DNA of 64,000 nucleotides. Origin: Lingula anatina. Its lineage: Eukaryota; Animalia; Brachiopoda. A model generated the notes under the pieces. That model worked only from the letters and a program-made list of their open reading frames with translations, searched no databases and had not been told where the DNA came from. The first letter of the stretch is position 1. Each line of letters opens with the position of its first letter. The stretch is taken from positions 7,688,001-7,752,000 of the forward strand of contig CM120640.1 of assembly GCA_051362555.1 (NCBI GenBank). The letters are read 5' to 3'. Made by a program: the position numbers and the translations under genes. Below are positions 8,401 through 35,115 of this stretch, piece by piece.

Positions 8401-9774
8401 CATTCAAGTGGGTAGTTGCCCCAATCCATATGCTGAAACCAACATTCTGTTGCCAATGGCTTCACCGTTACCCTGGCACAGGGAGCTTTCGGGGAGCTTC
8501 ATCTTGCTCTTGAAAGGATGCCCCGGGGATGCAGTTGACATTTAACTTTTATAACCAGTGCAAAAAAAAAAACTTTCTTCTTTTAATATACTTGAAATTC
8601 ACCCCACTATCGATCGTTGCAATGAAAATGTTATTGAGATAAAAAATTCGAAGCCCAGAAATTCTTGTCTACATGTACTTTACCTGGAGCATAAGAGCCT
8701 TAAATCTGTTTTCCCAAAATAACAAGAGAGAAAGAGGGGGGAGAAGTGGGGGGTGAAGTGGTCTTACAATATGAAGTTTTTGCAAATCTCAGATCTTTCA
8801 TTCATAAGCCGTGCCAAAAATAATTTTGTTCGGATTCAAAACGGACAACTATTTTGTAGAATTTCAAAGCCCCAGAACCTTTTCAAAGTATCAAGGCAGT
8901 GTCGGGATGGAGAGTGAAAAGAACCTTATACTATACAGGTGCCATATCTAATTTTTAATTACGCTTATTCAGAGTTCAAAAGCCGAATTGCCTCTGGGGA
9001 CTGGGAACTTTTTTCTACATTATATTTCACAACTCCATTTCTTTTAATTTTTTACTTTTACATCCCAATAAGAAAGCTCCATTTTTATCTCCGAAATCAA
9101 ATCTGCACATAAATGGACAAACAATACGAGATATTATAAATTTGCTATCGCATGTGGATATGTTTATTACTATGTTTTTCAAAATCAACAGATTGAGACA
9201 TTGCTGAGGCTGGTCAACAATAATAATTTTTAGTGTAAAAATGTATGATGCAGTGATTATGAATATAAATTATAATTAAATAAAGGTGTTTTGAAGAAGT
9301 CAGCATGCACTGAAAATCGGACACATTGGAATTACGTATGGTAACATGAGATAAAGAAGTAGTACATATATGCAAACATGATAACCGAATGGCCAGTAAT
9401 AAGCAAAATGGAAATACTGATTGAATAACTTTGTAATAGTGTATTATTGTAAACATATAGCACCTTTAAGTTAAATTTGTAACTGAAATCCACGTTTACA
9501 TGCAATACATTTGTGTCGCCTATGTATTTGTCAAACAATACCTATTCGTACGATTGTTTGAAATTTCGTATTATTGTCTTTAAAACAAGTCAAAATATAA
9601 TAACCTGAAATTTATAATTGCTAGCATGAAGCGCAATATATGGAACGACTATGTTTGTTCTGTTTCTTTTCATAAACGAAATTGGCATATTATCTTACTT
9701 CAAATTTGAATAAAGCAGCAAAGTAAGATTTTAATTATCTTAATTCAAACTTGACGACTGATTGGAATCATAAT

Positions 9775-10826
9775 TTAATCCCTGTTGGCTGGCAAGTAAG
9801 AAAAATCCGGCAGATCACGTGTCTGAAAACGGAACGGTTCGGTAAGTGTTGAATGAACACGTGGTACCTGCTTCAAGCGCCCTGCGTCGCTTTTCATCAT
9901 GGTGTTCACGTGCTGAAAAAGTCTATAAATGCTAAGCTCTTTCGTCATTTCGCTGACCAGATGTTTGGTGAAATAACTCAAGGATGTGCGGTCGCCAGCA
10001 GAAGAGAGGGTATCGTCCGCGCATGAATACATCTTAACAAATCCATACCCCTGGTGGGACTCATTTAAGCGACGGAAGTCTCTTCCGTCCTGTTCGCTGC
10101 TGGTCTCGACGCTCGGAGTTGCGGCGCGACTTCCGAAAGTACTCTGAGTACTGTTTTCTACCTCGTCGTCACAATCTTCCACTTGTGCACCACGTGTCCC
10201 GGTCTCGGCTATTGGTGTACCACTGGGGTTCACGCTTCCAGCAGCGCATGGGGGACATGAAGTGGACGACATCTTCGGTATTGTACTAGATTCTGGTGCG
10301 TCTTCAAAAACATCATCATCATCCAGATTACCGAGCGAAAGGTCCTCCACGGCCTTCCTGAAATTTTCTGAAACTCGGTCATGGAACTGACCTGTTCCTC
10401 TGCAGGCATCGATGATAGAAATCTTCACCCTAGCCCCAGTCTTCATCATCAGCGTTTCAATTTCGCGAATATTTATGTATGAACTCGTCGTGGTTGCTTC
10501 CTCCCAGTGCCGGCGGTCATCGCTGTCGGGAACTATGAAGTGGAAACCTTTCTCGGCTGTTCCATGCCCAGAGAAGTAGAACAGCACAACTTGATCTTTC
10601 TCTGTCGGAATATTCTTTAAGGCTGAAATGATCTGCTCTTTGGTTGCGTTCTTCAATATGCACACCTCGAACGGAAAGCGAAGACTTTTGAGTTTCCGTG
10701 TCATGGCGTCGGCGTCGTTGGCACAGCATATGAGTTTGTTCCGTGTATCGGGGTCGCTGACGTAAGTGTTTCCCACAACAATGGCCGTCCTGTCCTTGAC
10801 GTGACTATAAGGAGGTGAGCGGAGAC
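9775..10826 (-). CDS. Terminal exon of copy A: caspase-hemoglobinase-fold peptidase C14 domain
   Basis: AIVVGNTY...NDADAM...NATKEQI...FYFSGHG (catalytic His)...IIDACRG (catalytic Cys), acidic linker, then a p10-like region YSCADD...FTKHL...QVP. Acceptor tttgtctctAG at 10828-10827. The TTG start in the ORF track is intronic. Confidence 0.92.
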
Positions 10827-13800
10827 CTAGAGACAAAATAAATACGGATACATGTTACCAGTATTTTTCACTTTATACCATTTTTTAATTTCGGCAATTT
10901 CCTGTCGATACTGCAAATTCACACTTTACAACCAGTTCTATTACCTGAATCGGTATGCAGGCGGGCTTTGCAATCATAGCAACTCCCCCCTCTCTCTCAA
11001 TTCAGTTGTCTCGGAACAGGTCCATCAGTGGAATCAATGCAATAGTGCTGTCACTTTCTCTCTCACAAATCGGTATACTTTACTTCTGAATTACATATTA
11101 TCAATTTTTTAATGGTTTTCGTATTTTTACCTGTAGGAATGGTAAACTGCCCACCAATTTTCTCCCAAAACACAACGGCGTCCTTCTTGGTCGACTTATA
11201 TTCTCTGTGGAGAAAGATATGTTTTGCTATGTTTTTACTGTGAGATAGCCAACAACATTAAGAACAGAAATAAGTAATAACCATCCTGGTTGCCGATACT
11301 GAAAAAAATTGTCATAATTACTTCACTCCCCTTAATTTTGAAGATTACAACAGACCATGGCTGAAATTCACGGACTACAACCCCAATAGCATTTAATATG
11401 GTAAAGAAATCGGTACATACCGCCCTATGGTTTCTTGACAGTTTGAGCAGTACACTGGACAAAACTCTGTATAATCCTTAAACCACCCATCCACTGCCTA
11501 TTAAGAAAATATATTTTTATCAGCAAAACATAAGCATTGCTTTTAAAATATATATCATATGTAATTCATCACCTTTCATGGAACTAAAAAACTTAATGCG
11601 TGAACATAAATATATTTGTTGTGGGTTCGCAGACACGTGACGTTTATGTGCGAACTGTTCAGTAAGGTCTGAGTAGTGTTAATATCATGTGACTGGTCAC
11701 TTGAGTAGTGTTATCAAATAGAAGGTGATGAGGAAAAGTAGATTTTAGAGTTAGGTCATTCGAAGGCTCTTTCGCATTCCGTGAAGATGGCAGAGAATGA
11801 TCAAACTGATTCGGGTCCACGCCCCGAGGACCCAGAAAGACAAGAAGGTTGGAAAACCGTGAAAGAGTATCAAATTTCCGACTTTGCTGACGATTCTGGA
11901 GATGAAAGAAAGATCAGAGCAGCGGAAAACAGGGCTCTTCGTCAATCGCGTAAAAACAACTACCGTTTTTCTCCATATGCCACTCCCACCGCAGCCGCAG
12001 GTGCCCCTTTTTCTACCAACAGAGCAATGGCTTCCTCGCCGTACCCAGGGCCTTTTCCTTCAGCCGCAGTCAGCTCAGCAGGCCAGTTGAATCCCAGTCT
12101 AGGGCCCAGATTTCCCACTTTTTCGTCACAGCCTTTTCGTAGGATCCGCAAACCGATGCCGTCCGACATCTGCTTCCTCTGTTTGCAGCCGGGACACTGG
12201 AGATCAAGCTGCCCCAACGCCCAAGTTAGACCAGAACCAGAGAACCAACGCAATTGAAAATGTAAAAGATAAGTATTTTCTGAAAGATCCAGAAACTTTT
12301 GAATGCTTGACAGACTTACATTTGCGCCAACATATAGAACATTTAAAAAAACTTGATCGTAATTTCTCAAAGACAGACGGCATTAAAGGAAGTCTTCGTG
12401 CCCATATGCAATTTTGGAAAGACATGAACACTTATTCTGACATTCTCAGAATCATAGAGAACGGTTACGATATTCCGTTTATATCCAATCCTCCATCCAT
12501 GTTTATGCAAAATAACAGATCAGCTATAAAAAAACGCACATTTTGTCAAAAATACAATTAAAGAATTGTTGAATACAGGTTGTATTGTTCAAGTGCCTTT
12601 TAGACCTTTTATTGTTAGTCCTCTAAGCGTTGCTGAAAACAGAGAAAAGAAGAGATTAATTTTGGATTTAAGTCAATTGAACAATCATATTAAAAAAGAT
12701 AAAGTTAAGTTCGAAGACTGGAAAGCGAGTATAGATTACTTTGAAAAAGATTGCTTAATGATTAAATTTGATCTTAAATCAGGTTACCATCATATCGATA
12801 TTTCACATAGATTTCAATCTTTCTTGGGATTTTCCTGGGATTATCATTTCTACTGTTATACCGTTCTGCCTTTCGGTCTTTCCTCTGCTCCTTATATTTT
12901 CACTAAATGGTTGAGGCCGTTAGTCAAGTATTGGAGAGAAAAAAGCATTAAGATAGTTTTATATCTAGATGACGGGATAGTCTTTTCAAAAAATTTACAT
13001 GAGTGTCAGAGAGATTCCTCGTTAGTGAGAAATTCTCTTATTCAAGCGGGTTTTTTAATCAATGAAGAAAAATCAAAACTTTCACCTGTTAATAGTTTAG
13101 AATGGCTCGGTATTATTTGGGATGCCCCATCTTTTGCTCTGTCAATACCAGAAAGGCGAAATCAAAATACTTCAATAGCAATAAAAAAAATTATTTCTAA
13201 GTTCAATTCTTTTACAGCAAGGGAGTTGGCCAGCGTCGTAGGAAAAATCATTTCCATGTCTCCTGTTCTGGGCAACATCTGCAGAATCAATACTAGATAT
13301 TGTTCTATGGCAGTAGTCAATCGATCTTCCTGGGATATCCCTTTAACCGAAGTGGACAAATGTCCCATTCTAAACGAGCTCAAATTTTGGCTTCAAAACA
13401 TTCGTTCTCACAATAACAGATCGCTTTTAAAGTCCGTCAAAAAAGAAATTATTATTTTTTCGGACGCCAGTAACGTAGGGGCGGGCGCCTTTACAGTCGA
13501 AATAGAAAACAAAATTTTTCACCAAAATTGGACTGCTCAAGAAGCTATCATGAGTTCAACGTGGAGAGAGTTAAAAGCAGTAGATCTGGCTATTATGTCT
13601 TTTGGGCATCACATAGCAAATTCTCATGTCAAATGGTTTTCGGATAATCAAAATTGCGTTAAGATTGTACAAACTGGAAGTATGAAAAAATCTTTGCAAG
13701 ATTTATCCTTCAGTATTTTTAAGACTTGCATTAATTTCGGAATTTCCATTGATATTAGCTGCCGATTACTTGAGCAAAATTATCGATTTTGACGATTGGG

Positions 13801-16800
13801 GGGTTTCGCCGGAGTTTTTTGAATTCATACAAAAGCTTTTCGGTCCCTTTACAGTAGTACAGTAGGTTCGCTAACTCACAAAACACAAAACTCAAACGGT
13901 TCAATTCAAAATTTTGGAACCCAGGCTCCAAAATGTAGGCGTTTTGTGCAAGTAGTAGAAATGGATTATATTATTTTCGAATCAGCGGATCTAAAATAAA
14001 CGCGCAATATATTCGTATTTATAGCCTGTTTGACTGCATTTAAACTAAGACGCAAGTGAAGATAATGTGTGTTTGATTGACGGGGCTGGTTTAGAGATGA
14101 GCTGCATACCTTGTTGGTATTTATACCTAGGCTTTCACAAGCTATATTATCCCATATCATTCGGATAATGTTCAAGTGATGTTTTGCTACTGGATGACAA
14201 CTTACATGTAGCATCCCAATTGTATTGCTTTAGGAGCGTACAGTGAAGGGAATATCATGAAATCCCAGTGATCTGACCAAAGTAAATTTGAGGGACTAAT
14301 GGTAGAGGAAAGATCCAGTAAAACTACGTAGTATAAGTATGCATACCAATGCAATTTACTGTTACACAACGCCGTTCTCCCTTGGGCAAAATTAAAGGCT
14401 AACATCCCCGTTTCAATTTACCACTTCAAGGGAAAGATTCAGAACAGCGCCAAAACTAATTAGAGCTTTTAAGCAGATTGTTGGAAGATTGTGTTAATTC
14501 GTTACATCTAAGCTTTGTCAGGGATTAATTTTTGGTTGGGGTTATGGTTTATGTTTAGTTTAGTTTAGTTTACTTCACTGTAACATATGCATCCACTTGT
14601 GTGGATGAAAATGACAATATGAATACAATTTATGTGTCGATTATAATTGGAATGCCTTTGATAATTTTATAACCAAGACGTATGGAATAAAATACTGTAA
14701 TTTTCTATGTTTTATAATTATGTGTGAGGACTCGCACCAGACACGGGCATTTAATTTTGGTTGGTCCTTACGGGCTTGCATTCGACCGGCGGCAGAGTTG
14801 TGAATCAATCTACAGTATATTATTTTCAGTTTATATAAAAGTTACCTAAGTCCCGCATAACGCTATCTAAAAAATTGGTCACTTTATGACCTTTTAAAGC
14901 ACCGCTACAGATGTAGACACTCCAACCCAATTAAGTTCGATGTGAGAAAACTTTCCAACAAAAAGTGACATATAAAAACGTTATGCAAAACGTGAGCGGT
15001 TGGGATAAGTTAATTTACGCTCTCATTTTTCATATGAAAAAAAAATGAATATTTATTACAAGAGTTCAGGGTGGGAAGGGGGCATAAGGGCATAGCAACT
15101 AAATTATGTTATGAAATAACGATTTGAAATTTAAAAAAAGTCAAGTTGAACCTTTCTACTGATATACTTTATCATGGTTCGGTTAAGAAGATATATACCC
15201 CCCTGCCCACACTTATTTCAACCTGTAAGATTGGAAAGTCGGTAGTCTGGCTCGGGCAATAAAATCTTACTATCTCCACTTCTGGTTTCAATCAAGCGCG
15301 TTCAGAGCTTCAGAGCTTAGGACAAACATATTGCTCCTCGGGCCAGGAAATCTGGAGAGGGGGAGTAGAGGAACATGTCTTCTCAATATGGAAATCTATA
15401 TATTTTTGGTAATTTCCTTTGTAACATTTACGAACACTGTAAAATACACTTTCTCAAATTAATATAATGTTCACACATTTCTGTAAATATCCTGAATTGA
15501 AATACTAATTTTAAATGTCAGATTTATGACGAGGGAGAGAGAGGTCAAGACATTCTGTAAATGTCCCGAACTAGGGGAGAGTGTTATAAACTAAACACAT
15601 CTTGGCAATAACCCGTAGCCAGTTAGACTGCTGAGTGGTCAACATTATTGTTTATATTTTTATTAATATCAAACAATTTTACTGTTTGCAGGTATACCTG
15701 TTTGGAACCTGTACTCTGCGCCATATAATAGCAATGGTGCAAAGTAGTGATATTGTAAAATCCTGCAATAAAATTTTCTTCAAATATTAAATTTTATTAA
15801 ATGGTTGAATACAACATTAGTAATAGAACAGTAATAGAATTCAGTATAATGATACTGAATTGTTGTAAAGACATATAGGAAGCAGGGTTACCATATATGC
15901 TCTGAAGAGAGAGGGAAATTTCTCGAGTTTGTTCACTGTCCTGTGAAGCCATATTTTGTAGCCTGAGATGCCGTATCCGTTACTTCGTGACCTGAAGCAC
16001 GTCTGGGCGCTCTTTTCATCTTTCAATTCTTCCACATTAATCAAGATACGGAGTATCAATTACAAGTGCCCGGGGAGGGGGGGGGGGGGGAAGAGGGAGC
16101 ATGAAGGGAATAAATAACTATAAGTAGTATCCTTGCGACACAAGGTTACTCTCCATTTTTTATCTTTCCATTTATGCTGTGAAATAATAGTCAGGTAGTC
16201 CGTTGATCTTGCGAATCAACCAAATGACCGTTAGTTGAGTTGCTTAACTGCAAGTAATTAATCTCCTCCCCTCCCCCGAAAGTCATACTGGCAGGTTTCC
16301 AAATGAAGACTATACCGCAGAAAAAGTTTGGGGCCCAAAAGAGAGTCAGCCAAGGACACGTTTGGGGAACACGTTAGAACACGTCATGATGGACATTTAC
16401 AGGTGTAGGACCAGAACAGAGCCTCTGGTAAACAGTTAAGAACCAAGGGACCGAACTTGATTTGAGGACCAGAAGAGAGGCTTTACAATTGTCTGTATTT
16501 TGGCCTTTTCTTTTTCAGAGAAGCGAATCCCATACGTTCATCAAAGATATATTTGAATTTAAAGACGCTTCACATATTTATATACAGGGCAACAACAAAC
16601 ATTCTATTTTTAATTCAAATTTCAAATCTGCAGTCCTTGTTGTAAAATTAGACGCTTCTTCTTACTAAATCTGAAGAATGTATATTTGTGTCTAAACATG
16701 TATAAATAATGTGAGAAATAAAACTAGTATACAGGGCTTTATATTCGAAATTACGGATTTGTTTTAGTAAACAATGATTCGGACGCTTTTGCACATCGCA

Positions 16801-17614
16801 TTATAAGTCAAGTTTATAATAAAATTAGATTCTTAAGAATAAATCAATAAATAAATCAAAATAAAAAAAATAAATAAAGATACATGCATATTAATTCATA
16901 CGTAGTAAAAAAAAAATTTCATCAAAAATATATATTTAACGGTACGTTGATTGAAGTGAGGAGTAGAGTAAGTCATTCGTAAATTAAGTCGAACTAATTT
17001 CAGAGACAGAGAGAGAAAGTGAATAGAGAGAGAGAAAGAGAGAGAGAGAGACAGAGAGAAAACGAGAGAGAGATCGTTCAGTTGATAGATTAATTGTGAT
17101 CATTATGCATTGCAGTTGAAGAAGGCCTGGTGCATAAAATTAAATCGACAAACAGAATTAATAATAATAACAATAATTATAATAGAAATTAGATCTATAA
17201 TTAATTAATTATAATAATTATAATAGAAAATAGATCTAATTTAAAGAAAGAGCGAAAGAAAAAATTTTATCAAATAAGTCGTTCGCATTCATTATGCATT
17301 GCAGTTGAAGAAGGCCTGGTGCATACAATTAAATCGACAAACAGAAAAACAATAATAATAATAATAATAAATTTATTTTTAGAATTTTTTCTTTGCTTAT
17401 CAAAACTCATATGCTTTGCATAATTACATTCTGTTGCTTGTTATGCTGAGTTGAGGAAGTCCTAGTACAACAAGTTAAGTCGATCTAATTCAAAGAAAAA
17501 AAATCGTTTGCATTCAATATGCATTGCAGTTGAGGAAGGCCTGGTGCATATAATTAAATCGACAAACAGATATATTTAAAAAAAATCCAAATAAGTGAAT
17601 TATATTTTATATTT

Positions 17615-17689
<75 letters not shown>

Positions 17690-20600
17690 TATCTGTTGCT
17701 TAATGCATGAAGTTTTAGTCCTCATAAATTAAGTTAAAGTCGATCTAATTTGAAGAATGCGTAAGAGATTTTAAGGAAAATAACTGAAACGTTGAAATAT
17801 ATGTCACAGCAATTTGAACTCGGAAGAAGAGAAAATTTTAGTAGAAAATGAATGAAAGAATGAAATTAAGACGAAGCGATAAAGAAAGAGAGAGTGAAGA
17901 GTTTACGAGTGAAAGAGAATTCTTGTGAAAAGGAACTTTTATCGGAGAAGACGATTTCAGTTATGATAAATATAACAGAGTACGAGAGAGTAATAAAATT
18001 ATTAAAGGGTTTTTGATCTGTGTAGAATAGAGAGAGAAAGAGAATGAAAGTATGACGAAGCGATTAAGAAAGAGAGAGTAAAAAAAATAATTTACGAGTG
18101 AAAGAAAATTCTTGTGAGAAGTAATCTTTATCGGAGAAGACGATTCAGTTATGATTAATATAACAGAGTGCGGGAGAGTAATAAAATTATTAAAGGGTTT
18201 TTGATCTGTGTAGAATAGAGAGAGAAAGAGAATGAAAGTATGACGAAGCGATTAAGAAAGAGAGAGTAAAAAAAAATAATTTACGAGTGAAAGAAAATTC
18301 TTGTGAGAAGTAATCTTTATCGGAGAAGACGATTCAGTTATGATTAATATAACAGAGTGCGGGAGAGTAATAAAATTATTAAAGGGTTTTTGATCTGTGT
18401 AGAATAGAGAGAGAAAGAGAATGAAAGTATGACGAAGCGATTAAGAAAGAGAGAGTAAAAAAAATAATAAATAAATAAATTTAAAAAAAAATTACCAGCG
18501 AAAGAAAATTCTTGTGAGAAGTAATCTTTATCGGAGAAGACGATTCAGTTGTTTAATATAACAGAGTGCGAGAGAGTAATAAAATTATTAAAGGGTTTTT
18601 TAGATCTGTGTCGAATAAACTTTTTTGATCTAGTGATTATAGAAGTTTTTAATCTATTTTAGAAATAGTTGGGCTGAATTATATATATTATTGTATTTTT
18701 TTTATAATAATATATTCATACTGATAATCATAAAAAATATAAAAATAAGTAAATAGTGAATCATTAAGTCAAGCTTTTAGATAAGTAAAAGAAGAATAGA
18801 CAGATTAAAAAGAAGCTATACATAGATTTTTATTTCCGGTGTTTTTATACGTTTTTCAGATATTTTTTCTATCGGAAGATGGAAAGATCAACCATCAGAA
18901 CAAGACGAAGTCTTAAAAGAACTCGAAAAATCTTTACAGGAATACTGCTTAAAGTCAAAATCAAATAACACTGTTTCAAATTATAAATATGCATTCAATA
19001 AATTTAGTTCTTGGTGCAATAGCTTCAGCTCAAAACTTTCATCCTTACCAGCTTCAGAAAAGCACGTGTCCATGTATTTTATTTATTTAGCCAAATCTGG
19101 AAATTCGGCAGCAACCCTTAACGGAGCTTTTTACGCTATTAAATGGGCTCATAACTTAGCCGGCTTCTCAGATCCTACCGATTCCTTCCTTACGAAAAGC
19201 GTTAAAGAAGGAACTTTTAGAGAAGTCTCTATCACAGCAACGAAAAAAGAACCTATTTTACCAGAACATTTATCTATGTTAATAGATAAGTACGCAAACG
19301 AGCATTCCAACTTGGCAGATCTTCGTATTGCCTGTATGTGCGTATTAGGATATGCAGGTTTCCTTCGATTCTCCGAATTGTCAAACATTAGGAGCAAAGA
19401 CATTACGTTCTTTAATGATCACATGAACATTCATATAGAAAGAAGCAAAAGTGATGTATACAAAGCAGGGGCGGACATATGTATAGCAAAAACCTCTTCA
19501 AAGACATGCCCTGTAGCTCTTTTAAATAGGTACTTAAATTTAGCCGAAATTAAAGAAAATTCCGACATATTTATTTTCCAATCTGTGTATTTTTCCAAAA
19601 AAGAAAAGGTTTATAAGTTAAGAAAAGGAAACAATCCTTTATCATCCGGAAGAGCCAGAGAAATAATTTTGTCAGCTTTCCAGAGTATTGGATTGGATAA
19701 AAATAAATTCGGTTTACATAGTTTAAGATCAGGCGGGGCAACCGCAGCGGCAAATAGCGGAGTGCAAGAACGATTATTTAAGAAACACGGAAGATGGAAA
19801 TCGGAAAACGCTAAAGACGGTTATATAAAAGAGAACTTGAAAGAAAAGATGGTAGTTTGGCAATCAATCGGATTATAATAAACTTGTTTTTCGAAACTGT
19901 TAGTTGGATTGAATGTGTTTTCAGAAGGAATTATATATATTTAAAAAAAAAGATAATTAAATAAATAAATAAATAAATATTCACATTTTATTTTGACATA
20001 TCATTCCGTTTGCATAGAATACAAGGATACACTCTTCTTTCTTTATCATCGAAATGAGCGCTTCCATACCTAACACTGTGTCTGTGTTTATACTATAAAT
20101 ATTTTATGTTCGTTTGAGTGTAACGAATTAGAACATAAATATATTTGTTGTGGGTACGCAGACACGTGACGTTTATGTGCGAACTGTTCAGTAAGGTCTA
20201 AGTAGTGTTAATATCATGTGACTGGTCACTTGAGTAGTGTTATCAAATAGAAGGTGATGAGGAAAAGTAGATTTTAGAGTTAGGTCATTCGAAGGCTCTT
20301 TCGCATTCCGTGAAGATGGCAGAGAATATATATAATTCCCTCCCACCCTCCCAATTTGAAGGAGTTTTACTTTATAAATTAAAAAAAAAGTGTGTTAAGC
20401 TTGTTTGTTTGAATAAATATATTTAATAAATAAATACGAGATATAATAAGTAAAGATTAGAAAGAATAGAGAAATTAGTTTTAGTCTTAGTTCAAGCTTT
20501 TCAGTGTTATACTTATTTCATAACAGAACGTTTTAATTTTTTAGCTCGGATCCTGGTACGGCAGAAGACAAAGCAAGATGGAGTTAAAAAAAAAAAAAAA

Positions 20601-23475: not shown

Positions 23476-23517
<42 letters not shown>

Positions 23518-26500
23518 GAGTATAATATACATTCTACCAAGATATGCAGTTTCAAGTCCAAAATTAGGACTTAGTGGCATAGCCACGTGACCTAATAATA
23601 GCTGCCAGTTTGCGAGGCAAGGATTCATATAATTGTCTGATGCGTTCACGGCTTATGCTGGCCCAAGCATGAAACACTGAATCTAACAGAGTTTGTCTGC
23701 TGGTTGGACGGGCATTTGTCAAAAGTTTTGACATATCATTCCACACATTTTCTATTATGTTTGTATCCGGACTCTGGACAGGCCACATCACCCTGCGAAT
23801 GTCCTGTTGGTCAAACCAATCATCAACTGCTCTGGGTATGTGACAAAGAGCACTGTCATCCTGGTAAACAAATTGATAATTCCTGTCACCAAGGATGTTA
23901 GTAATAGATATCGATATATTTCTGGTGATTCATGTGTCCATCAACCACTACCAATTCACCCACACCATGGATGCTGATGCAGTCCCTCACCATGATGGAT
24001 ATGCTGCTCCGATAACAATTATTGAATGGCCATGGCATTTGAATAGTATTCTAACTGCACTATGACTGCATTCTAAATATTCTCACGGCATTCCGACTGT
24101 AACTGCCCGCGATATTTTTATTTATTTATTTTTATTTTTATTTGAGTTTGTTCTTTGTTTACTTATTATTCATGCGAAGTACATTTTCCGTTCTTTCTCT
24201 TTTGTCCTTCCTTGTTTTCTCTCTCTTTCTCTCTCTCTACAAATTATAACGTTACAGGCCACCGCACTTACGTAACCGCACCGTCACATGCCTGTACCAC
24301 ACCCTGCACTGAACAGTTTTCATTTCACAGCATATATAAGGCTTCCTCTGTATTTCTTTTTGCTCACTTCACTTTCGTACACAGAACGACACAGGGAATC
24401 TAACGACACTATCTAACGACACCATTTTAGCTCACCCAGTCGGAGAAAAGGGTAACTATTTCAACGATAACGTAAACTTCTCTGGCTTTGGGTATTCCAA
24501 CGTTTCTATCTATCCTTTTGATGATTCATGTTGATTCACCGTATAGACCTTGATAAAAATAAAAGTATATATATTGATGCACCTTGAAAGAGCTACATTA
24601 TAGTTGTTAAATACAATTCGAGCTTTCGGCCCCTGGGCCTTCTTCGGGGATTATTTAACAACTATAATGTAGATCTTTCAAGGTGCATCAATATATATAC
24701 TTTTATCTATCCTTTCATAACGATATTAGCACACTTGGTCGGGGATAAGGCAAATTATTTCAACGCTAACGTAAACTTCTCCAGCTTTGGGTCTTTGCAA
24801 CCTTTTCGTCTATCCTTTTTCTTACACTTTCGTATGTACTTCGTGTAAATTTGTAATCAATTTTAAGTTATTTTGTATTTTACTTTGTTTTCAGCATTTC
24901 TTTATTTTTCCCACACCCTTTATGTGATATGTTGGTATACAGGTCAGCAGGTTTTGTTTCTAGGTTGTAGGTTTGACCCGCCAATGGATGTCACTGGGGA
25001 GGTATGCTTACTCATTGGTATACTGTGGTATATGTATATGTCATGCTGTTTATTACCAGATTTACAAAATGTTTGTTATTAGAGAGCTTTCGCACCTGCA
25101 CGTTTAGGCGAACGACTACGTTTAGGTCATCATAATTTGCTGTCTAGTGACGTGTACACATACGGTTAGAGAGAACATTATCCGCAGCTAGATTGCTACC
25201 CGTCAATGAAAAACGGTTTGACAAATCAGCATAATTTCATGAAATGAAGCCTTTCAAAGTTGACCGTTTCTCTACTAAAATCGTATTGGACATTTTATTT
25301 TTGCAATATATGTGAAACATTTTGTCTCTGTTATTTGTGTGTATGTTTTTGTTACTATTGAAATATAGGTTATACCCGTAAAAAGGGCATTTTCCACTGA
25401 CCACAAGGTAGTCAGAACTGGCCTTCCGCACGCGTGACGGATTGTATTATAAGACTGTTAGGTCATCATCTTGTGAGCAGTTTTTACGAGTACACATGCC
25501 TTTATAAGTGGTCTATAGACTAGCCGTCTGCACTTGACGCGTAACAAGCAGGATATCCGTCAGGTAAGTGCCGTTTAGTAAGACAGTACTAGTAGCTCGA
25601 TTTTCTCCATAGTTGACAGGAGACATATCCCCTGACTTTTAATGCAAATTTTATGAAGCCTTGTTTCGAAAGTCACACGGCGTCCTGTTTTGTGTATTTG
25701 AATGAATCTGTACTCTGAAATTTTGGGATGAGAAATATTGATTAATATTAATTATATTAGTAACAAAACTGACGCTGCATTAATTGGTGACTCTGTTTTT
25801 TTAGCTTAAAATTGCGACAACATGCCGCCAACTAAGAAGCGCCGAACTGATTCATCAGCAGATTACGTCAGTTACCTGAAAGACAAGTTGGCCTTCGAGA
25901 AAGAACGCTTTGAATTAGAAAACAAAGAGCGAGAAAATAAAATTGGAAAAGACAAACACATGATGGAGATGGTTATATATATATGTCTTTGGTTAAAAAG
26001 AAAAACTGAATTGACATACTAGGCTCTTGCTGCCTACAACATACACATGGGATGGGTCTTTGTTAAATCTTTGTTTTTCTTCAAGATTTCATTTCAATAA
26101 AGTTTGCTTTCTGTATGAATTTTAGATTTTACTCTTTAATTTTTCATACGCACAATTTACACGTGTACAGTTCATGCTAAATAGTTCTCCAAGGTGGGAG
26201 GATCTAGTTGAAAGTGCCGACTGGTCTGATTGCCATACACACAGGTATGGCAGTTAACCAGAAGACCACCTACCAAGTAGTACTTAGCTACAGGAGACAA
26301 CAGAACTTTTAAATTCTTTCGAAAGCCCAGGAAGGCAAAGTTTCGCAATAAGTTTCCGAACTCCCACTCGACGCATTCCCGGACAGATGACATTCTCCTA
26401 TTGAATTCTTCTTCTTCGGCACTCAAATTTGCTCCTCTGAAGGGACTCAACAGATACCTTCTAATGGGTTAAGCCGGATCTCCACAAATTGCGTATGGTA

Positions 26501-29500
26501 GACCATTCCTATCAGTAAGCTCTCTAGCTTCCATTTGTTCCATCAGTCCACTCAAACGAAGCAGTGCACAATCATGCCTTCGCCCTTCTAGAGTACCATG
26601 GCCCATAGGAGCCTACGCGTGCGTCTTTTAGACGCCCCTTTTAATGCGAAAACGACAAGGCCTATGCCGAGTTCGTCTTTTACTACAGAGCTTTGAGAGC
26701 CGAAAATGGCATGGCTGTCTCTTTCGCCACTTACTGAACTCCAGAGATGCGAGATTGACACGACCCATGTCGCGTTTGTCTCTCAAAAGACACTGTTATA
26801 AAACATGAATAGGCATAACGTGTGATTTTCGCAGCTGAATAAGTAGACCCTTATAAACGAAGTTGACGTAACTTGAGAGTCATGTCGCTTTCAACTTTTA
26901 CAAACCTCGAACAAAATCTATCTCCACACAGACGCGCGCGACATGTAGGCCTACTATTGGACATGGGTCAGTTGAAAGCGACATTAACCTAAATGGCTCA
27001 TGTTACTTTCAGCCAATTAATTTGAAACAGAAGGATCGTCTTAAAACCCTTTATATTTGAATCCTTGAAAATGAAAATATGAGGCCATATAATTATTACA
27101 AGCAATTAGCCACACTGTTATCTAGATAGCACTAAATTATGATGGGATTCAAATGAAAAAAATGTTTTGGGACAGCACAACACTGTTTCAAATTAATTGG
27201 ATTTGACATATAAGAGTTGGCTGAAAGTAACATGAGCCCTTTAGGTTAATAGGGTTTCAACTGACCCATGTCCCATAGTACATGTCGCGCGCGTCTGTGT
27301 GGAGATAGATTTTGTTGGAGGTTTGTAAGAGTTGAAAGCGACATGACTCTCAAGTTACGTCAACTTCGTTTATAAGGGTCTACTTATTCAGCTGCGAAAA
27401 TCACACGTTATGCCTATTTCATGTTTTATAACAGTGTCTTTTGAGAGACGAACGCGACATGGGTCGTGTCAATCTCGCATCTGTGGAGTTCAGTAAGTGG
27501 CGAAAGAGACACAGCCATGTCATTTTCGGCTCTCAAAGCTCTGTAGTAAAAGACGAACTCGGCATAGGCCTTGTCGTTTTCGCATGTAAAGGGGCGTCTA
27601 AAAGACGCACGCGTAGGCTCCTATGGGCCATGGTACTAGAGGACCATAAATATGCGCAATCAACCCGCTAGGTATCACCACTGATTGAAATTTCAATGCG
27701 TGAATGCGCTTGTGTCCATTGTAACATACACGTTGATTGCGTGTTGGCCTGCTTATAGGACGAACCGTGCCATCCACAAAACCTATGCAGTTCTGCAGCG
27801 GCGCACCCTTCTCATGTATTTTATCAGCATAAATTTGAAGTTGTGCAGGACCCAACCACGGATTATCCAGTGTATCCAAACGATGATGATGACTGTCATA
27901 GAGTAGACCAACAGTGTGATTGATGATCACGGATAAGGTCGATGCAGGTCGACCAAAAAATCTTTCCAAATCACTCAGTCGATTTGGGTGCGAAAATCTC
28001 TTTAAAACCATACATTAGGCATCAAGTCCGCTGCACCTGCATCTGTTACTTACAGTTATCATATCAGGAAGTCCTAATAACGTTACCAAGCGATATACAT
28101 CTTCCTTTTCAAAGCGAAAGTCGTTAGTAAGGGTACCCAAATTAAAACTTGGCCATTCAGGGTCATAGGTTATCAGCCTTTTCTGAGGTCTATCGCGAAG
28201 GAGAGCGTATATCAACTCCTCATCATCGCCTTGAACTGCCATTTGCAGGAGGTCCATGCTGAAGCGTGTGTAGTTTTAGTAATAGATAGACCCCGAGTCA
28301 GCGAGGGTTATGTGGCATACACGAGTGCGTAGCACGAGTGGATGTCACATAACCCCCGCTGACGAGGGGTCTATCTTATTTTGACCACGGTCCATAAACA
28401 GGTTATAACGCATTCATGCGAGACGTGCGGTTATGCGAGTTACACCACGTCCGAGTCTTTTGTTCTTCACTTGCACCGTGGTCTAAAGTGTGTTTACCCC
28501 TGTGATGTTTATCATGCCTATTCGTTCATCACCCGCGTGCAGCAAAAATTACCTAACCTGTCCAATGGCGTATGACATCATTTAACGTCTCTGCTTACAG
28601 CACGGGAAACATGTATCAGCCTACTATACAATTCGACTATCCGTAAAGGCTAACCGGGTCTTTCTGCGAAATCACGAAAAAATAAACGTTGGTCACTTTA
28701 CGGTTACGGATAGCTAAATGTAGTCGGTCGCCTAAACGTGCAGTTGCGAAAGCTCTCTATTGCTATTACACCACTACATGCGACCGGATGACCTTGTGGT
28801 TAAAGTGTCCGCCTCCGGAGCGGGAAGACGTGGGTTCGAACTCTTCCGGGGACATATTAGTCCTTAATAAACGGAACCTGCTGTCTCGCCGCTTGTTACT
28901 GTTGTTCTTGTGTCTTTTTTTTTTTTCATTATGTGCCAAGGAGTCAAATATTCCTTTTAAAATATGGGGCCATGGTGACTCTTTTATAGAGATAAATCAA
29001 GGGATGGAGTCAATTGTGGAGTCAATTGTGAATGGAATCAATTGTGACCCTCCTGTGGGATCTGGGATGGCGTTACTCCATCGCGCGGAGTCAACTTGAC
29101 TCTAATTGGGAGTTATTTTAGGCACCACTGCTGGACACCAAGTTTGAAGTCACTTGGACTCCGATTTTATTCACGGTGGACAAGAATTTAGTTCAATTTG
29201 AAATTTCTTCCCGAATGTAGTACGATTTTTAAATTTAGTCATTCCGGCTGGTTCTGCTTGATTCCTGCTGATTCCGAAAAAGTGTGACGGGGGCTTAAGC
29301 GATGACAAATTTTACGGTTGCGTTTTCCTGCAATTATGAGATCATAAATTAGGCCCTATTGGTTTGTTTTTTTTTTTATATGTCGTTTGTCTCAATATCT
29401 GACGAGGTGGAAATCAGTTTGCCTTCCACCTGGTCAACCACTCACTTTTTGGATCCTTAAAACAGTGAACTTGCGTATGATCTCTTTCCTTGAAAAGATG

Positions 29501-32500
29501 AATGTCTTCCGACCCGTGAAATCCAGATCCAATAGACACGTGATCTCTCAAGTTTACGATGCTGTTCCTCCATGACACTCTGTGTTGACATCGGCGGCAT
29601 TTTAGGTACAACTCTGGGTTTAAGAGCATTGAATTTGAGAGCATAAAATAAATGAATAGAATTCACATATTTACATGAGGTTGATGAAAGACCTCTTTAC
29701 GCTACACTACAGTACATTTCTGGCACTTAATCTCTTAAAGGGTGAAGTGAGTCAATTAGAAAGTAAAATGTACCAGATAAAAACAAGCTTATTGTTACGT
29801 TTACATAGTGATAGCTTTCAAACTAGTGAAAAATCCAATATACTTGGCACTTAATCACTAAAAGAATGAGGTGAGTCAATAAAAAGGTAAGATATGTCAG
29901 ATAAAAACCAGCTTAATGTGACAGCTTTCAAACTAGTGGATTATCCGTGGGGTGTTATTGAAGATAATACTTCCCTTGTCAACAACGAGCTGCAAAGTGA
30001 AAGTGGATAAAGACGTCTTTTTTAAGGTAGCTCCTAAACATAAAATATTTCTTAACAGTATAGTACCTTCTTGGTGCTTTCCGTCCAGCTTTTCAAGCAC
30101 GAGACCGTAAAACGTTGGGAGGTTGGATGACTCGTCTTTTGGCATGTAGACACTGTGAAAATGATTAAAAAATACATAAAACGTGAAGATTCTCCATCTC
30201 TTCGTGGGAACGTTTCTCATATTAAAGTTACAATTGTCTTCATTTACAAGAGATCTTTTTGTAAAATACTAGAAAAAGAGCGTTCATGTCTACTTCTCAT
30301 CAGGTAAATTTTAATTGCAGGAAGTATCATCTGTTCCATATACAGGGTTACTACTTAATATGGAATATTATTTTTTGGCAAGTAAATTTTCTACAAAATA
30401 TTTATTTTCTCTTTAAATCCAAAACCTAGGTGTCACTCCATGTGTAGCCAGGTGTGTTACCTAATTACCACACAACTCTCGAAACAATTGATGCATGCAG
30501 TTGCATGTTCTGTGGTCAGAAATGTGACCGGTGGTCTTTTTGGCAATTTCTGCCCTTGTATAAAAACGCATGGGTTTGGCCAGTCTTTGGAGTGTATTTA
30601 GAGAAGCAACAAAGGGATCGCTCTGAAACTTGACAGGTACTTTAGAGAAGATATGGTTCGACAGCTAAGCAACGCAGCTTACTAGGGGATCCCTGCTCTC
30701 AGAGAAAATGGCCAGAAACGGATAGCAATTGCTAGGCAATGCAACATATATCAGGAACTGTTAGTAAAGTCCTCCAAAGAAATGCTACAACAGGGCACCT
30801 ACTCCAATACCTCGACCAGGGTGTCTGCGTATCACACCAAGAAGACAGGATCGCCTTCTCCTTAGAGTGCGCCATGCTGGTCGTACAAAGACAACCAGTG
30901 TCCTCAGAAAAGAGTCGCAGAATGTCATTCAAACGCCCGTTTCAAGGTCCCTCGTGAACAAGAGATAACTGCAAGCCGGTTATTTTGCACGAAGACCAGT
31001 AGGGAAACCACTGTTAACAGCAGGTCATGTACAGCGACGTCTGAAATGGGCTGGGGACCACGTGCGTTTGCAGCCGAAACACTGGAATCACGTCGTTTTC
31101 GGTGATGAGGCCAGATATAAGGGTCAAAGGGTCATTGCCGCCAGACTGGTTGCACACTTAGAGAAAAACAATCTTATAGAGCTAATGCAATCTGCATACA
31201 AGGCCAGACACAGTACTGAGTCAGCTCTACTTAGGATTAAAAGTGATCTTTTATGTGGAGTGGATAAACATTCAGTGGTTCTTTTAGTCCTGTTGGACCT
31301 ATTGGCAGCTTTTGACACTGTTAATCATGGACTACTAGATTTTATTGGTATTAAGGAATCTGCTCTTAGTCTTTTACGTTCTTATTTTACAGGCCGGTCA
31401 CAGCAGGTTATGATAAAAGGCATATTATCAAATGTTTCAGAAATAGCTTTCGGTGTGCCACAACGCAGTGTTCTAGGACCTCTTGTTTTTTGCATGTATA
31501 CCTTACCAATTGGGGCCATACTAAGACATCATAAGATTGGCTATCATATTTATGCTGATGACACACAGATTTTTACTTGTTGCAATCTAGAAAATCCAAA
31601 AGAATCTATTGATATATTGTCTAAATGTATTGACGATCTTCGCAGGTGGCTGATTAGTAATAAGTTGAAAATTAACGATGGAAAGTCTGAACTTTTGGTA
31701 ATAAGTCAGCCACATAATCGTATGATAGCACAACAAATTCAGCTCAAAATTGGATCAAGCATTATTAAGCGAAAAACCTATGCAAAAAATCTTGGTGTAT
31801 TTTGTATGAACAAACATATTGCCAGTGTATGCAGGACAGCGGTTTTTAACATTAGGAACATAAGTGCAATTCGCAATCAGTTGTCTGACTCTGCTGCAGC
31901 CACAGTCATAAATTGTTCAGTTACATCTCGATTAGATTACTGCAACTCCATTTTATACGGTTGTCCAAAGAAACAAATTGCCAGACTGCAGCGCATTCAA
32001 AATATTTCGGCCAGATTATTAACTCGGACATCCACAAGCATACACATCTCCCCAGTTTTAGAAAGTTTACACTGGCTACCTCTACAAGCCAGAATTTTAT
32101 TCAGATTTTTAGTTTTTACTCACGATGCTTTTTATGGATTGGCACCGATCTACATCAATTAATTGTTAGTCACTATGTTCCACTGCGAAATCTGCGGTCT
32201 GTAGACCAATTGCTACTCAACCCAGTAAAAATGCGATTAAAATCCTACGGTTATATATCTTTTAAAGCTGCAGGTCCAAAGGAATGGAATCTATTACCGC
32301 TGGAAATCCGAGCAATTAAGTCTACCAAACATTTTAAAAAAGAACTCAAAACATACCTTTTTAGGAAATATTTTGATTAACTCTTAATTGGTTTTATAAA
32401 TCTTGTATTAATTGCATTTAATTGTATGGCTGTTTTACCTAGATTTTATTTATGATATTTTATGTAGTATTATTTATGATATTTAATGTAAAGTCTACTG

Positions 32501-35115
32501 AACATTTTAAATGGATTTTAGACTTAAAATAAATTTATTATTATTATCATATGGAGTTTTTAGTGCTCAGGGCCGAATCCCTGTCCGCCGACGTGTACGA
32601 GAGGCATAAAACAATGATTATGTACTGCCTAGGGTGCAAGCAAGGGGTGGTAACGTCTCTGTTTGGGGAGCATTTCTTGCCGGTGCCCAGAACCAGTTAA
32701 TTTTTCTAGGAGGCAACCTCAACCAGAATTCCTATAGAGACATTCTACAACAAACAATGCTACGATTTGTAAGAGTCACCTTCAGGAACAACTTTGGGTA
32801 CCAAGACGACTGCGCAACTCCACATCCAGCTCGCAGAATCACTGTTTTTCTCCGAAACCAATGGGTTCAGCAACTGTCCTGGCCTGCAGACTCCCCAGAT
32901 ATGAACCCAATTGAAAATCTGTGGGCGGAAGAAACTCGCAGAATTAATAGCTATGGTCATCGGTCGGTAAATAGTGATGAACTGCGATAGGCAAATATCA
33001 CTGCGTGGAATGATGTCCCACCCAAACTTTAAAAAACTTGTCACAGGGTATGCCATGTGGGATGTGGGCGCTGCAATCGGCTGCTGGAGGTCATACCCCC
33101 TACTGATGACTTTTCATGATTTACTGTAGTGAGTTCTTTGAATGTGTAACATATTACAGTCCGGAGGCATTTTTTAAATATCTTAGCTGAAAATTAATAC
33201 TGACATCAAACTGTTGATATGGTTTTCTGGGGGTGTTCTTTTCTTTTGAATAACATCTTATGTCAGATTTGACATTATTGACCAAAATATCTCACAATGG
33301 AAGACTGGATATTATTATCACTCAATGACATACTTTTATGATGAATCAAACCAAAAAAAAATTTAATCAGCACTCAACAATAACAATGATAAAAAATCTT
33401 CCATATTAAGTAGTAACCCTGTACAGTAGGCTAACAGAATATCTTATTTGAGATGTGCGATGAACAGTTTTCCATTATTTAGATATTTACCTCCCAACTT
33501 GCTTTTTGCAGAATTTGCAGTAACATTTTGACCTGACGTAATGCTGAAACCACATCAGTTTGGTCCGCGTCTGTAAAAGTCGTTATCGTTTATACTATTC
33601 AGGGCCGTAGCCTGAGCAAAATGCCAGGGGGGGGCAGTAAGCGGACACGAGGGGGCGAAGCCCCTGAGGGGGGAGGGTGTGGGAGGGGATGTCCCCCTCC
33701 CACGATTGTTGAATGATTGTCTAGTGGCCATGAGTGCATTTTCTCACAGAATTGATACCAACTTTGCAATTAATTTTTTTTACCTTTGCGATTATTATTA
33801 TTTTTTTTTTTTTGCACCTCAAATCCCAGGGGGGGGGGGGCAGCTGCCCCCCCTGCCCCCCCCGGAGGCTACGGCCCTGCTATTATAATCATGGTAATTT
33901 AGAATAGCCGCACAGACAACAATAACATCTTCGACAAATCAGTTGCTTTAATAATATAAACCAAGATAACATACAACATTGGTCAAAAAGGTTCCCCACC
34001 ACCAGTTTCATGTGCTTTTCGGCTGTTTACTAAAATAGACCAACATAAGATATGAGGTGTTAAATGGCTGATCCAGGTTCTGATTGATAATGAGTCATCC
34101 TGACTCTGAGCCCTCTTTATAAGCGGTATTTTCAAATATTTCAGGGGAGGGGGAGTGGATTGGGTGGCCCTTTTTCTTGATAACCGATCTAATATTTAGT
34201 GTTACCTTTCTTTCCTGGTATACACGTACATCGCAGTTTTTCTTGACAAACACTATATCTCGCTTGCACTCTAAAAAGAAAAGTGGATCAATAAAAAGTA
34301 TAATGTACCAGATAAAAGCAAGGCTACGCCTACATAGTGATAGTTTAAAAAACAGTGTCAGAGTGGTGTTACTGACGTTAATATGTGACATATTTACACC
34401 AAAGTGCCAAATATGTTTTAAATGATGACGTATAAACACGTACATATTTATGGATTGCCTAAAGTATCTTTTTTAATTTTCCCTTTCGATTAGCTCTCTA
34501 TCAGTTTTACTGGCCTTGAATATGTTTACATAATTTCCCACTTAATCGCCCCCACTACAAACACCATCCCACGCAAGCTGAGATATAAAAAATGAGATAA
34601 GAGCGCACGTACAAGATTTGAAAATACTACTTACTGTCGTCTGGGTCGTAAAAAGTTTTGACGGGCAAACAATACACGTGAACGTCTGTCAAACATATTT
34701 CCACATCCCTCCCCTCTTCCTGCTCGGGCTCTAGAGTCACTCCCTCAGCCTTGAGGTCAGCGACAGAAATGACATCAAGGGTTTTGGCCAGGGTCGACCC
34801 GCACTTGTGGCAATTTAGGTGGACCTCTGAGAAATAGAAACCCGTTAATATGGTATTTTAACGAATCGATAAATTGCGTTGGATATAAAGTTTGAAGCAG
34901 AGAGAGAGAGAGCGAGAGAGAGAGAGAGCAAACCACCACAGATCAGCGACTGATCCAGACCGCCTCTCCCCTCGAACAATACCTTTTCCTTCCGGGTGGA
35001 AGCTGGAACGAGAAGGCGAGCTAATTGATGTAGTGCGTCGAACTACTTCGCTTTCTTGATTTTGTCCACTGTCGTCACAAGATACGTCTAACGGTCTTGC
35101 TTTGTCTGTGGCCAT
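9775..35115 (-). CDS. Copy A: 14-exon gene, 3x CULT/Yippee-like Zn domains + peptidase C14 (paracaspase-like) domain, ~786 aa
   Basis: Exons (minus strand): 35115-34983, 34826-34635, 34270-34206, 33570-33491, 30152-30067, 29613-29446, 22726-22665, 22477-22398, 22142-22072, 21810-21658, 21306-21239, 11497-11421, 11204-11131, 10826-9775. All introns are GT-AG with compatible phases. Total 2361 nt, open frame. Every exon has a counterpart in copy B. Motifs: LKCRRC...FKDPKNDYHVFLTV...SDWFVGFTAVECRCPRDWCKRLVGWRF...FYGL; FYFSGHG; IIDACR. The exon 1 donor (GTATTG) is the least certain boundary. Confidence 0.85.
11787..12257 (+). CDS. DIRS gag-like ORF with CCHC knuckle, probably internally deleted
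   Basis: GWKTVKEY...ADDSGDERKIRAAENRA motif typical of DIRS ORF1; CFLCLQPGHWRSSC zinc knuckle. Confidence 0.75.
   Translation: MAENDQTDSGPRPEDPERQEGWKTVKEYQISDFADDSGDERKIRAAENRALRQSRKNNYRFSPYATPTAAAGAPFSTNRAMASSPYPGPFPSAAVSSAGQLNPSLGPRFPTFSSQPFRRIRKPMPSDICFLCLQPGHWRSSCPNAQVRPEPENQRN
12307..13935 (+). pseudogene. DIRS reverse transcriptase/RNase H, frameshifted and interrupted
   Basis: RLILDL, FDLKSGYHH, LPFGLSSAP, YLDD, FSDAS, STWREL. Frameshifts near 12530-12565 and 13760-13790. The C-terminal remnant resumes at ~16485-16668 (FWPFLF...YIQGNN). Confidence 0.88.
17617..17686. repeat. (TA)n microsatellite
   Basis: Read directly from the sequence. Confidence 0.95.
17865..18620 (+). repeat. 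~185-189 bp tandem repeat, ~4 copies, inside the DIRS element
   Basis: Units start gacgaagcgat at ~17870, 18054, 18242 and 18431. Confidence 0.9.
18860..19878 (+). CDS. DIRS tyrosine recombinase
   Basis: Frame is open from the acceptor ttttcAG at 18858-18859. Catalytic residues appear intact: LRFSE (R), KSD (K), HSLR, HGRW, GY. Confidence 0.9.
23366..24012 (-). mobile_element. 3' fragment of the same Tc1 family
   Basis: WPVQSPDTNIIENVW...SRGYATK. Same terminus as 5375-5402 in reverse orientation. Contains a (CA)n tract. Confidence 0.88.
25081..28758 (-). mobile_element. PIF/Harbinger-superfamily DNA transposon, disrupted
   Basis: ~45 bp TIRs agagagctttcgca.ctgcacgtttaggcga with ATT TSD. 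DDE_Tnp_4/HARBI1-like transposase in pieces at 28257-27641 and 26592-26172 (CIGFVDGT, YNGHKRIHALKFQ, GPLEGRRHD, SSVRECVEWEFG). Convergent charged ORF remnant at 25822-26022 fits the accessory gene. Confidence 0.9.
26593..27636. mobile_element. Palindromic MITE inserted in the Harbinger transposase
   Basis: Long inverted arms gtaccatggcccataggagcc... with 4-bp TSD TAGA. Removing it restores YGPLEGRRHD. Confidence 0.92.
28780..28895 (+). mobile_element. tRNA-derived SINE 5' fragment
   Basis: A-box-like gtggttaa and B box ggttcgaac, with no complete cloverleaf acceptor stem. Confidence 0.65.
30343..33421 (+). mobile_element. Full-length degenerate Tc1 element in intron 4 of copy A
   Basis: TIR cagggttactacttaatatggaa with TA TSD. 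Motifs VVFGDEARY, VWGAF, YQDDCATPH, WPADSPDMNPIENLW. Empty site ccataTAca in copy B near 58600. Confidence 0.92.
31098..32548 (+). mobile_element. 5'-truncated L2/CR1-group LINE nested in the Tc1 transposase
   Basis: QSAYKARHSTESAL, LDLLAAFDTV, GVPQRSVLGP, YADDTQI, SRLDYCNS, LHWLP, WNLLP, and an aataaa plus (TTA)n tail. Confidence 0.92.
33600..33879. mobile_element. GC-rich MITE with CAGGGCCGT termini and 5-bp TSD (CTATT)
   Basis: TIR cagggccgtagcct / aggctacggccctg. Same family as 58044-58459. Confidence 0.85.

Follow-up and report, generated by a model that had tools for sequence, protein, structure and literature searches.

We analyzed a 64,000-nucleotide stretch of the Lingula anatina genome (assembly GCA_051362555.1, contig CM120640.1, positions 7,688,001 to 7,752,000; hereafter the window) and found a gene, designated gene A, whose predicted product joins three tandem domains related to the CULT domain of cereblon to a paracaspase-like cysteine protease of the C14 family. 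Gene A lies on the minus strand (35115-9775) and comprises 14 exons, with GT-AG borders at all 13 introns; splicing by coordinate yielded 2361 nucleotides encoding 786 amino acids (aa) and a single terminal stop. The initial annotation, made from the letters of the window, had proposed this open reading frame (ORF) scattered over 25 kb, and both the ORF and every motif quoted for it were recovered in the translated gene. Pfam recognized Yippee-Mis18 (in the family protein P0001, E value 2e-7) and Peptidase_C14 domains.

Gene structure, transcription and distribution

Each repeat of gene A is encoded by four exons with the start phases 1, 1, 0 and 2 (exons 2-5, 6-9 and 10-13; Table 1), a pattern indicating that a four-exon module was duplicated in tandem. 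A crude hydropathy scan detected no signal peptide and no membrane helix in the leader. Copies in this assembly were counted within the window, which contains a second, upstream copy, gene B, whose exons are 72-96% identical to those of gene A. The ratio of nonsynonymous to synonymous substitution rates (dN/dS; simple counting on this one pair) was 0.46 overall, 0.44 over the repeats together, 0.36, 0.70 and 0.37 for repeats 1, 2 and 3, respectively, and 0.11 for the C-terminal half of the protease. The duplication reaches approx. 1.8 kb past the stop codon (8005-10187 and 38102-40309, 89% identity), and another stretch shared by the two copies lies near 7426-7653 and 37519-37746. Neither gene B nor the paralog described below, which is encoded elsewhere in the genome, had been noticed in the initial annotation.

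Transcription was analyzed in six raw-read RNA runs carrying the same species label. Four of these, mapped on region 9400-11800, gave 71, 16, 114 and 13 reads (214 in total), and those of the stranded run came from the minus strand. The junction joining exon 13 to the protease exon was spanned by 10, 0, 13 and 3 reads (26 reads in three of the four runs), and this splice, predicted by the initial annotation, is thereby established at the level of the gene family, since the reads derive from related alleles or copies. The joint between exons 12 and 13 had the gene A length in two runs and a longer exon 13 in others, while a loose end seen at exon 12 in 5 reads of a single run corresponded to the final bases of exon 11 (27 of 30 letters shared with gene A, 28 of 30 with gene B). 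For region 21000-35400, the matches listed included joints 5/6, 8/9 and 10/11, as well as 6/7 and 7/8 with letters between the exons. RNA support among the matches listed thus covers seven of the 13 predicted junctions as joints (5/6, 6/7, 7/8, 8/9, 10/11, 12/13 and 13/14) and one more, 11/12, through the loose end, with none of these matches falling on junctions 1/2 to 4/5 or 9/10. Separately, two RNA runs from a single study placed 6000-9000 reads on approx. 50 bases of intron 6 of gene A (28786-28840); every one of these reads continues into other sequence, which identifies this segment as a piece of a highly abundant transcript whose gene lies elsewhere.

The gene had been described as hidden, which does not hold: the protease exon matches the uncharacterised L. 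anatina locus LOC106151618 (isoforms of 793, 789 and 657 aa), where RefSeq carries the identical architecture. Exons 1-5 of LOC106151618 are similar to those of gene B and its exons 11-13 to those of gene A, a mosaic that may reflect gene conversion or a chimera of assembly or annotation. The gene A locus itself is represented in RefSeq by LOC106166805 (P0004), which is identical to exons 1-11 in 384 of 386 residues and continues beyond them into intron 11 (all 22 tail residues are intron read-through), so that this model lacks the protease. The RefSeq family comprises LOC106151618, LOC106166805, LOC106168625 and LOC106163281, two of them protease-less models; its annotation is automatic only (Pfam Yippee-Mis18 and C14), with no function assigned.

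Word-indexed protein searches, which miss distant relatives, returned only Lingula proteins (2 of 3177, 2 of 1925 and 2 of 16 candidates), and all six proteins matching the CULT profile among 172 collected were from Lingula. No CULT-C14 fusion was found outside this genus, the exhaustive search having been made with the protease and none with the repeats. A metagenome scan with the paralog P0006 confirmed none of 117 candidates, viral contigs yielded only distant C14 relatives (no CULT domain in any of the 80 loci kept), and none of 120 bacterial CULT loci had a C14 match within at most 400 bases. In the open-access literature we found no description of a CULT-C14 fusion, although its absence from print is unproven, and no paper on cereblon in Lingula; the passages retrieved on L. 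anatina and metacaspases do not concern the gene A protein, and neither its accessions nor the terms CULT or Yippee occur in the supplementary files searched (12 of 13). The statement of the initial annotation that no three-CULT C14 protein has been described therefore stands within this literature, the RefSeq entries being uncharacterised. The fusion is real, expressed and apparently restricted to Lingula.

Homology of the repeats and the protease

The Yippee/Mis18 identity assigned by Pfam was rejected in favor of CULT. For comparison we collected bacterial CULT domains by a motif-pattern search (120 loci, L001-L120, of which 117 were usable), a set that is biased because the pattern fixes the residues of the ligand-binding cage. 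Gene A scored 47.7 bits with the CULT profile, versus 26-32 bits obtained with the Pfam model (P0001, P0003 and P0004). With the profile of the 117 bacterial domains, repeats 1, 2 and 3 scored 25.3, 35.1 and 14.4 bits, which none of 1000 shuffles per repeat reached (best shuffles 9.1, 9.9 and 8.2 bits), and the corresponding hhalign probabilities were 90.5, 97.0 and 25.4%. A profile of the bacterial set plus repeat 2 proved CULT-specific (MsCI4, E 1e-33; cereblon, 1e-21; YPEL5, 0.005). In the ESM Atlas, repeats 1 and 2 of P0001 retrieved CULT clusters first (0.90 and 0.87), which we treat as leads only. Repeat 3, weak alone, is tied to CULT through P0006. These comparisons identify all three repeats as CULT-derived, as the initial annotation proposed, and not of the Yippee or RIG-I type. 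In the prokaryote genome collection, the strict CULT motif occurs in an estimated ~600 stretches; the ORFs seen in the retrieved DNA are short (122-238 aa from stop to stop).

Evidence on the fold covers repeat 2. The model of repeat 2 of P0004, built on the bacterial alignment and thus steered towards CULT, is a beta-tent (predicted local distance difference test, pLDDT, 78.7) that best matches 4v2y (Z 16.4, root-mean-square deviation 2.0 over 100 residues). Cereblon domains led the ranking from this steered model (Z 16.4, 15.8 and 14.7), followed by Mis18 (11.0), YPEL5 (9.9), MsrB (9.6) and the RIG-I C-terminal domain (8.1), which makes the RIG-I comparison drawn in the initial annotation a distant one; all of these share the beta-tent with the repeats, their sequences being clearly farther away than CULT, and no sign of RNA binding came up, none having been looked for.

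As in the CULT family (cereblon, MsCI4), the repeats of gene A have the features of a zinc beta-tent with two cysteine pairs (putative structural zinc ligands; the second pair of repeat 2 is CxxxxC), the first cage tryptophan in all three copies and FYGL at the end of repeats 1 and 2; core residues are retained together with the cysteines. In contrast to that family, they occur as three tandem copies, carry an insert of approx. 20 residues after the first hairpin, have an incomplete cage and lack the NPxG motif. Three cage tryptophans and NPxG are given as the hallmarks of CULT in passages of PMC4287342 and PMC4449219, and 114 of the 117 bacterial domains have NPxG at the hairpin tip. At the positions of cereblon W380, W386 and W400, gene A has W/R/S in repeat 1, W/A/W in repeat 2 and W/F/R in repeat 3 (the Phe follows a one-residue insertion), and two or three of four pocket aromatics remain per repeat. 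The CULT architectures described in passages of PMC4287342 are LON-CULT, stand-alone and secreted CULT, CULT with a carbohydrate-binding domain in oomycetes, and CULT with an uncharacterized region in kinetoplastids. Unlike cereblon and the secreted proteins, gene A is fused to a protease and has neither a LON domain nor a signal peptide. Judged by the LON domain and DDB1-binding connector that characterize cereblon as an E3 substrate receptor, its product is not a cereblon: Pfam scans of P0001-P0006 gave no LON match, the 786 aa being otherwise accounted for.

Exon 14 matches Pfam PF00656 with an E value of 2.9e-31 (109 bits, cut-off 21.4). The His-Cys dyad is intact, the two halves of the fold are separated by a Ser/Thr- and acid-rich insert of ~110 aa, and the motif DACRG (DxCR) and the acidic S1 residues Asp474 and Asp576 are present. 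A profile built from the protease and its relatives (65 sequences) retrieved MALT1 first among solved structures (E 3.5e-35, versus 3e-13 for caspases), consistent with the paracaspase-like enzyme proposed in the initial annotation. MALT1 holds the P1 arginine by D365, D462 and E500 (passages of PMC4626109); the first two of these three anchors are acidic in gene A, and the enzyme would likely cleave after Arg or Lys.

Judged by these residues and its domain content, the product is neither a caspase nor a MALT1 ortholog. Unlike caspases (C14A), it has no basic S1 pocket and no QACxG, the marks of Asp specificity, with Asp474, Asp576 and DACRG instead. Type 1 paracaspases are defined by death and Ig domains (passages of PMC5978004); Pfam scans detected neither, and gene A further differs from MALT1 in the E500 position and the 110-aa insert. 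Type 2 paracaspases are lone domains, whereas 437 aa precede the protease of gene A; its DxCR fits the type 2 paracaspase or metacaspase-like class, the motif being common to many prokaryotic homologs. The long linker that separates the p20-like from the p10-like half and the predicted basic P1 preference recall type II metacaspases, from which gene A differs in having DxCR rather than DxCH, large N-terminal domains and a match to metacaspase-9 of only E 0.7; type II metacaspases are reported only from the green lineage in passages of PMC5756287.

A midpoint-rooted FastTree phylogeny of 186 protease domains, which omitted P0002, P0004, P0005, four cluster members and partial domains and held no named paracaspase or metacaspase, grouped five Lingula domains (those of the window and P0006 included) at 0.95, and these with four unnamed environmental proteins at 0.97. 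The nearest sequences are therefore unnamed environmental proteins rather than MALT1 orthologs by name; 20 protease matches comprised, by name, one Lingula paralog, one rotifer and one bacterial protein, the rest being uninformative. In the tree neighbors P0151, P0019 and P0113 the C14 domain is C-terminal, preceded by a ubiquitin-like and a weak ZZ domain in P0151 and by fibronectin III in P0019, a hint that microbial eukaryotes possess a broader family of modular C14 fusions. A bacterial origin of the protease may be considered, as most of its top matches carry prokaryote-type partner domains, but its nearest tree neighbors are unnamed and one has a ubiquitin domain; the intronless exon 14 would fit a recent arrival, without proving it.

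Paralog, predicted function and competing explanations

The exhaustive protease search produced 5001 matches (E at most 0.001), the best of which, after the subfamily's own representative, was P0006 (104 bits, versus 76 for the next). This protein, encoded by Lingula LOC106163281 (554 aa), consists of two CULT domains (60.5 and 71.1 bits on the profile) and a C14 domain joined by a short linker. It matches MsCI4 and the solved CULT domains with an E value of 5e-14, has a complete W/W/W cage in both repeats, and is 31% identical to gene A over 405 aa spanning the CULT and protease parts. A FastTree phylogeny built from 39 of the 117 bacterial domains and 16 repeats from Lingula, with no animal cereblon or secreted CULT among them, clustered repeats 1 and 2 with the first CULT domain of P0006 (0.86) and assigned repeat 3, a long branch, by position only. 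The simplest history would be a fusion of two CULT domains with C14, after which the first module was duplicated and the cages eroded. Since P0006 keeps both cages, the original fusion was likely a genuine binder of the cereblon type coupled to a protease, and the subfamily of the window likely remodelled its pockets after duplicating the first CULT module.

We tentatively favor, at somewhat less than even odds, the reading that these proteins are one-component, cytosolic sensor-proteases, in which ligand binding to the CULT array would trigger cleavage after Arg or Lys by the active-looking C14 domain. This reading rests on (i) the splice model and the family-level RNA joints, (ii) the CULT scores and the cages of P0006, (iii) the His-Cys dyad and two of three S1 anchors, and (iv) the intactness of both window copies together with their overall dN/dS and its low value in the C-terminal half of the protease. 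The older form (LOC106163281), with two complete cages, would likely bind cereblon-type ligands (cyclic imides, uracil). In the window subfamily the first CULT module was likely duplicated to give three, each with a differently remodelled pocket; given this remodelling, thalidomide-like ligands are improbable. Activation could, on the model of MALT1 and initiator caspases, occur via ligand-driven clustering, perhaps followed by cleavage within the long insert. Metazoan C14 enzymes are activated by dimerisation (passages of PMC5756287); homodimer prediction for the exon 14 protease gave 0.55, versus 0.59 for a control. Gene structure, family-level splicing, domain homology and the catalytic and cage residues are observed, whereas ligand binding, its coupling to activity and the P1 preference are predictions, and a role in defence or cell death would be a guess.

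Several observations weigh against this reading. None of the three repeats of gene A has the full three-tryptophan cage, and NPxG and the equivalent of H397 are gone from all of them. W386A and H397Y each abolish cereblon function (passages of PMC12824623), and the Ala of repeat 2 is the equivalent of the former; with the cage incomplete and NPxG and H397 lost, thalidomide-type binding is unlikely, the cereblon-like ligand binding suggested in the initial annotation is not upheld, and the repeats may have ceased to bind ligands instead of changing them. The third S1 anchor (E500 position) is Ala, a site occupied by Asp or Glu in 166 of the 186 aligned domains. The beta-tent expected by the initial annotation was obtained for repeat 2 only with an alignment that steered the model, which is thus not independent evidence, while single-sequence AlphaFold2 prediction of P0001 reached a pLDDT of 30.8. 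On this one pair, no folded region has a dN/dS of 1 or more, which gives no sign of an arms race. Finally, the RefSeq model of the gene A locus terminates in intron 11, and only 2 of the 214 reads on 9400-11800 are at least 99% identical to gene A; the fusion is therefore proven for the family and not for the gene A copy itself, whose splicing across its own 9.7-kb intron 11 is predicted.

An extended form of the sensor-protease reading, to which we give roughly one chance in four, holds that Lingula coupled the damage-degron reader of cereblon straight to an Arg/Lys protease: the cage-intact two-CULT protein would sense cyclic-imide protein ends or uracil and respond by ubiquitin-free proteolysis, the three-CULT copies being a diversifying receptor array retuned to new, possibly microbial, ligands. 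Two alternatives are clearly less probable than the favored reading, and equally so. First, the CULT array could hold damaged proteins with cyclic-imide ends for the active site, as a quality-control protease acting without signalling or ubiquitin; the tri-tryptophan pocket of cereblon does take C-terminal cyclic imides (passages of PMC12824623), P0006 has both cages and protease-exon transcripts occur in all four runs, but the cages of gene A are incomplete and a housekeeping protease would be expected to be distributed more widely than in Lingula. Second, the subfamily repeats could be an oligomerising or autoinhibitory prodomain devoid of small-ligand binding, like the Yippee-like domain through which Mis18 oligomerises (PMC4818781). 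Such a role would suit repeats that kept their zinc cysteines and core as the pocket eroded, yet it accords poorly with the pocket aromatics remaining in each repeat and with profile scores closer to CULT than to Yippee/Mis18. Least probable is that the intron 11 retrotransposon disabled or truncated gene A to leave a protease-less CULT array, possibly a decoy: the read-through in P0004, the recency of the insertion and the slightly better gene B match of the exon 11/12 reads speak for it, but exons 12-14 are intact with canonical splice sites, an exon 13 of gene A length is joined to exon 12 in two of the four runs, and the element is antisense to the gene.

Mobile DNA of the window and meaning of the fusion

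The length of intron 11 of gene A (9741 nucleotides, versus 387 in gene B, which lacks the element) is due to the insertion of a tyrosine-recombinase retrotransposon (Table 1). The insertion is recent, to judge from terminal repeats that are 99% identical; approx. 5 kb of AT-rich, repeat-bearing DNA lies between its reverse transcriptase (RT) and recombinase. Intron 1 of gene B contains a 154-bp tandem duplication (60578-60867, minus strand). Head to head with gene B, an exon with a POB3/SSRP1 N-terminal PH domain (62970-63308, plus strand) likely belongs to a neighboring FACT-subunit gene.

Table 1. Location of gene A, gene B and mobile elements in the window.
Feature	Position	Strand	Remarks
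Gene A, exons 1-5	35115-34983, 34826-34635, 34270-34206, 33570-33491, 30152-30067	minus	
Gene A, exons 6-9	29613-29446, 22726-22665, 22477-22398, 22142-22072	minus	
Gene A, exons 10-14	21810-21658, 21306-21239, 11497-11421, 11204-11131, 10826-9775	minus	
Exon 1	34983..35115	minus	start codon and 44-aa polar leader
CULT-like repeat 1 (aa 46-186)	30067..34826	minus	exons 2-5; cage positions W137, R143, S157
CULT-like repeat 2 (aa 187-313)	22072..29613	minus	exons 6-9; cage positions W267, A273, W289
CULT-like repeat 3 (aa 314-437)	11131..21810	minus	exons 10-13; most diverged; cage positions W391, F398, R412
Peptidase_C14 domain	9775..10826	minus	exon 14; no introns; His524, Cys578
Gene B	61024-39897	minus	intact tandem copy; 14 exons; 764 aa; gene A phases kept
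Tyrosine-recombinase retrotransposon	11602..20890	plus	gene A intron 11; split direct repeats; layout we take to be Ngaro/PAT-like
ORFs of this element	11742-12254, 12530-13789, 18826-19875		zinc-knuckle, RT/RNase H, recombinase
Repeats A1, B1, A2, B2 of this element	11602-11798, 20050-20143, 20131-20327, 20797-20890		99% identity
Long terminal repeat retrotransposon	44357-48208	minus	gene B intron 10; unbroken 1284-aa gag-pol ORF (RT, RNase H, integrase)
DDE transposase and LINE-like RT fragments	26175-28275 (-), 30969-32159 (+), 32610-32987 (+), 23567-23929 (-)		gene A introns 4 and 6

Initiator caspases, MALT1 and prokaryotic sensor-caspase fusions already embody the logic of a sensor joined to a protease; the new part is CULT as the sensor. 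Which ligands CULT domains bind in nature, and what they do independently of a ligase, are questions of practical weight because degrader drugs rely mainly on cereblon. The weight of the finding is limited in that the fusion is seemingly confined to one brachiopod lineage and its function is predicted. Because a CULT-protease fusion carries an enzymatic read-out, ligand binding could be screened by cleavage, and the cage-intact paralog together with the three remodelled repeats would form a natural series on how far the pocket can be retuned. Bilaterians are reported to have typically a single MALT1-type gene (passages of PMC5978004); with the Lingula fusion, a third type of N-terminal module would be known from the paracaspase-like enzymes of a bilaterian.

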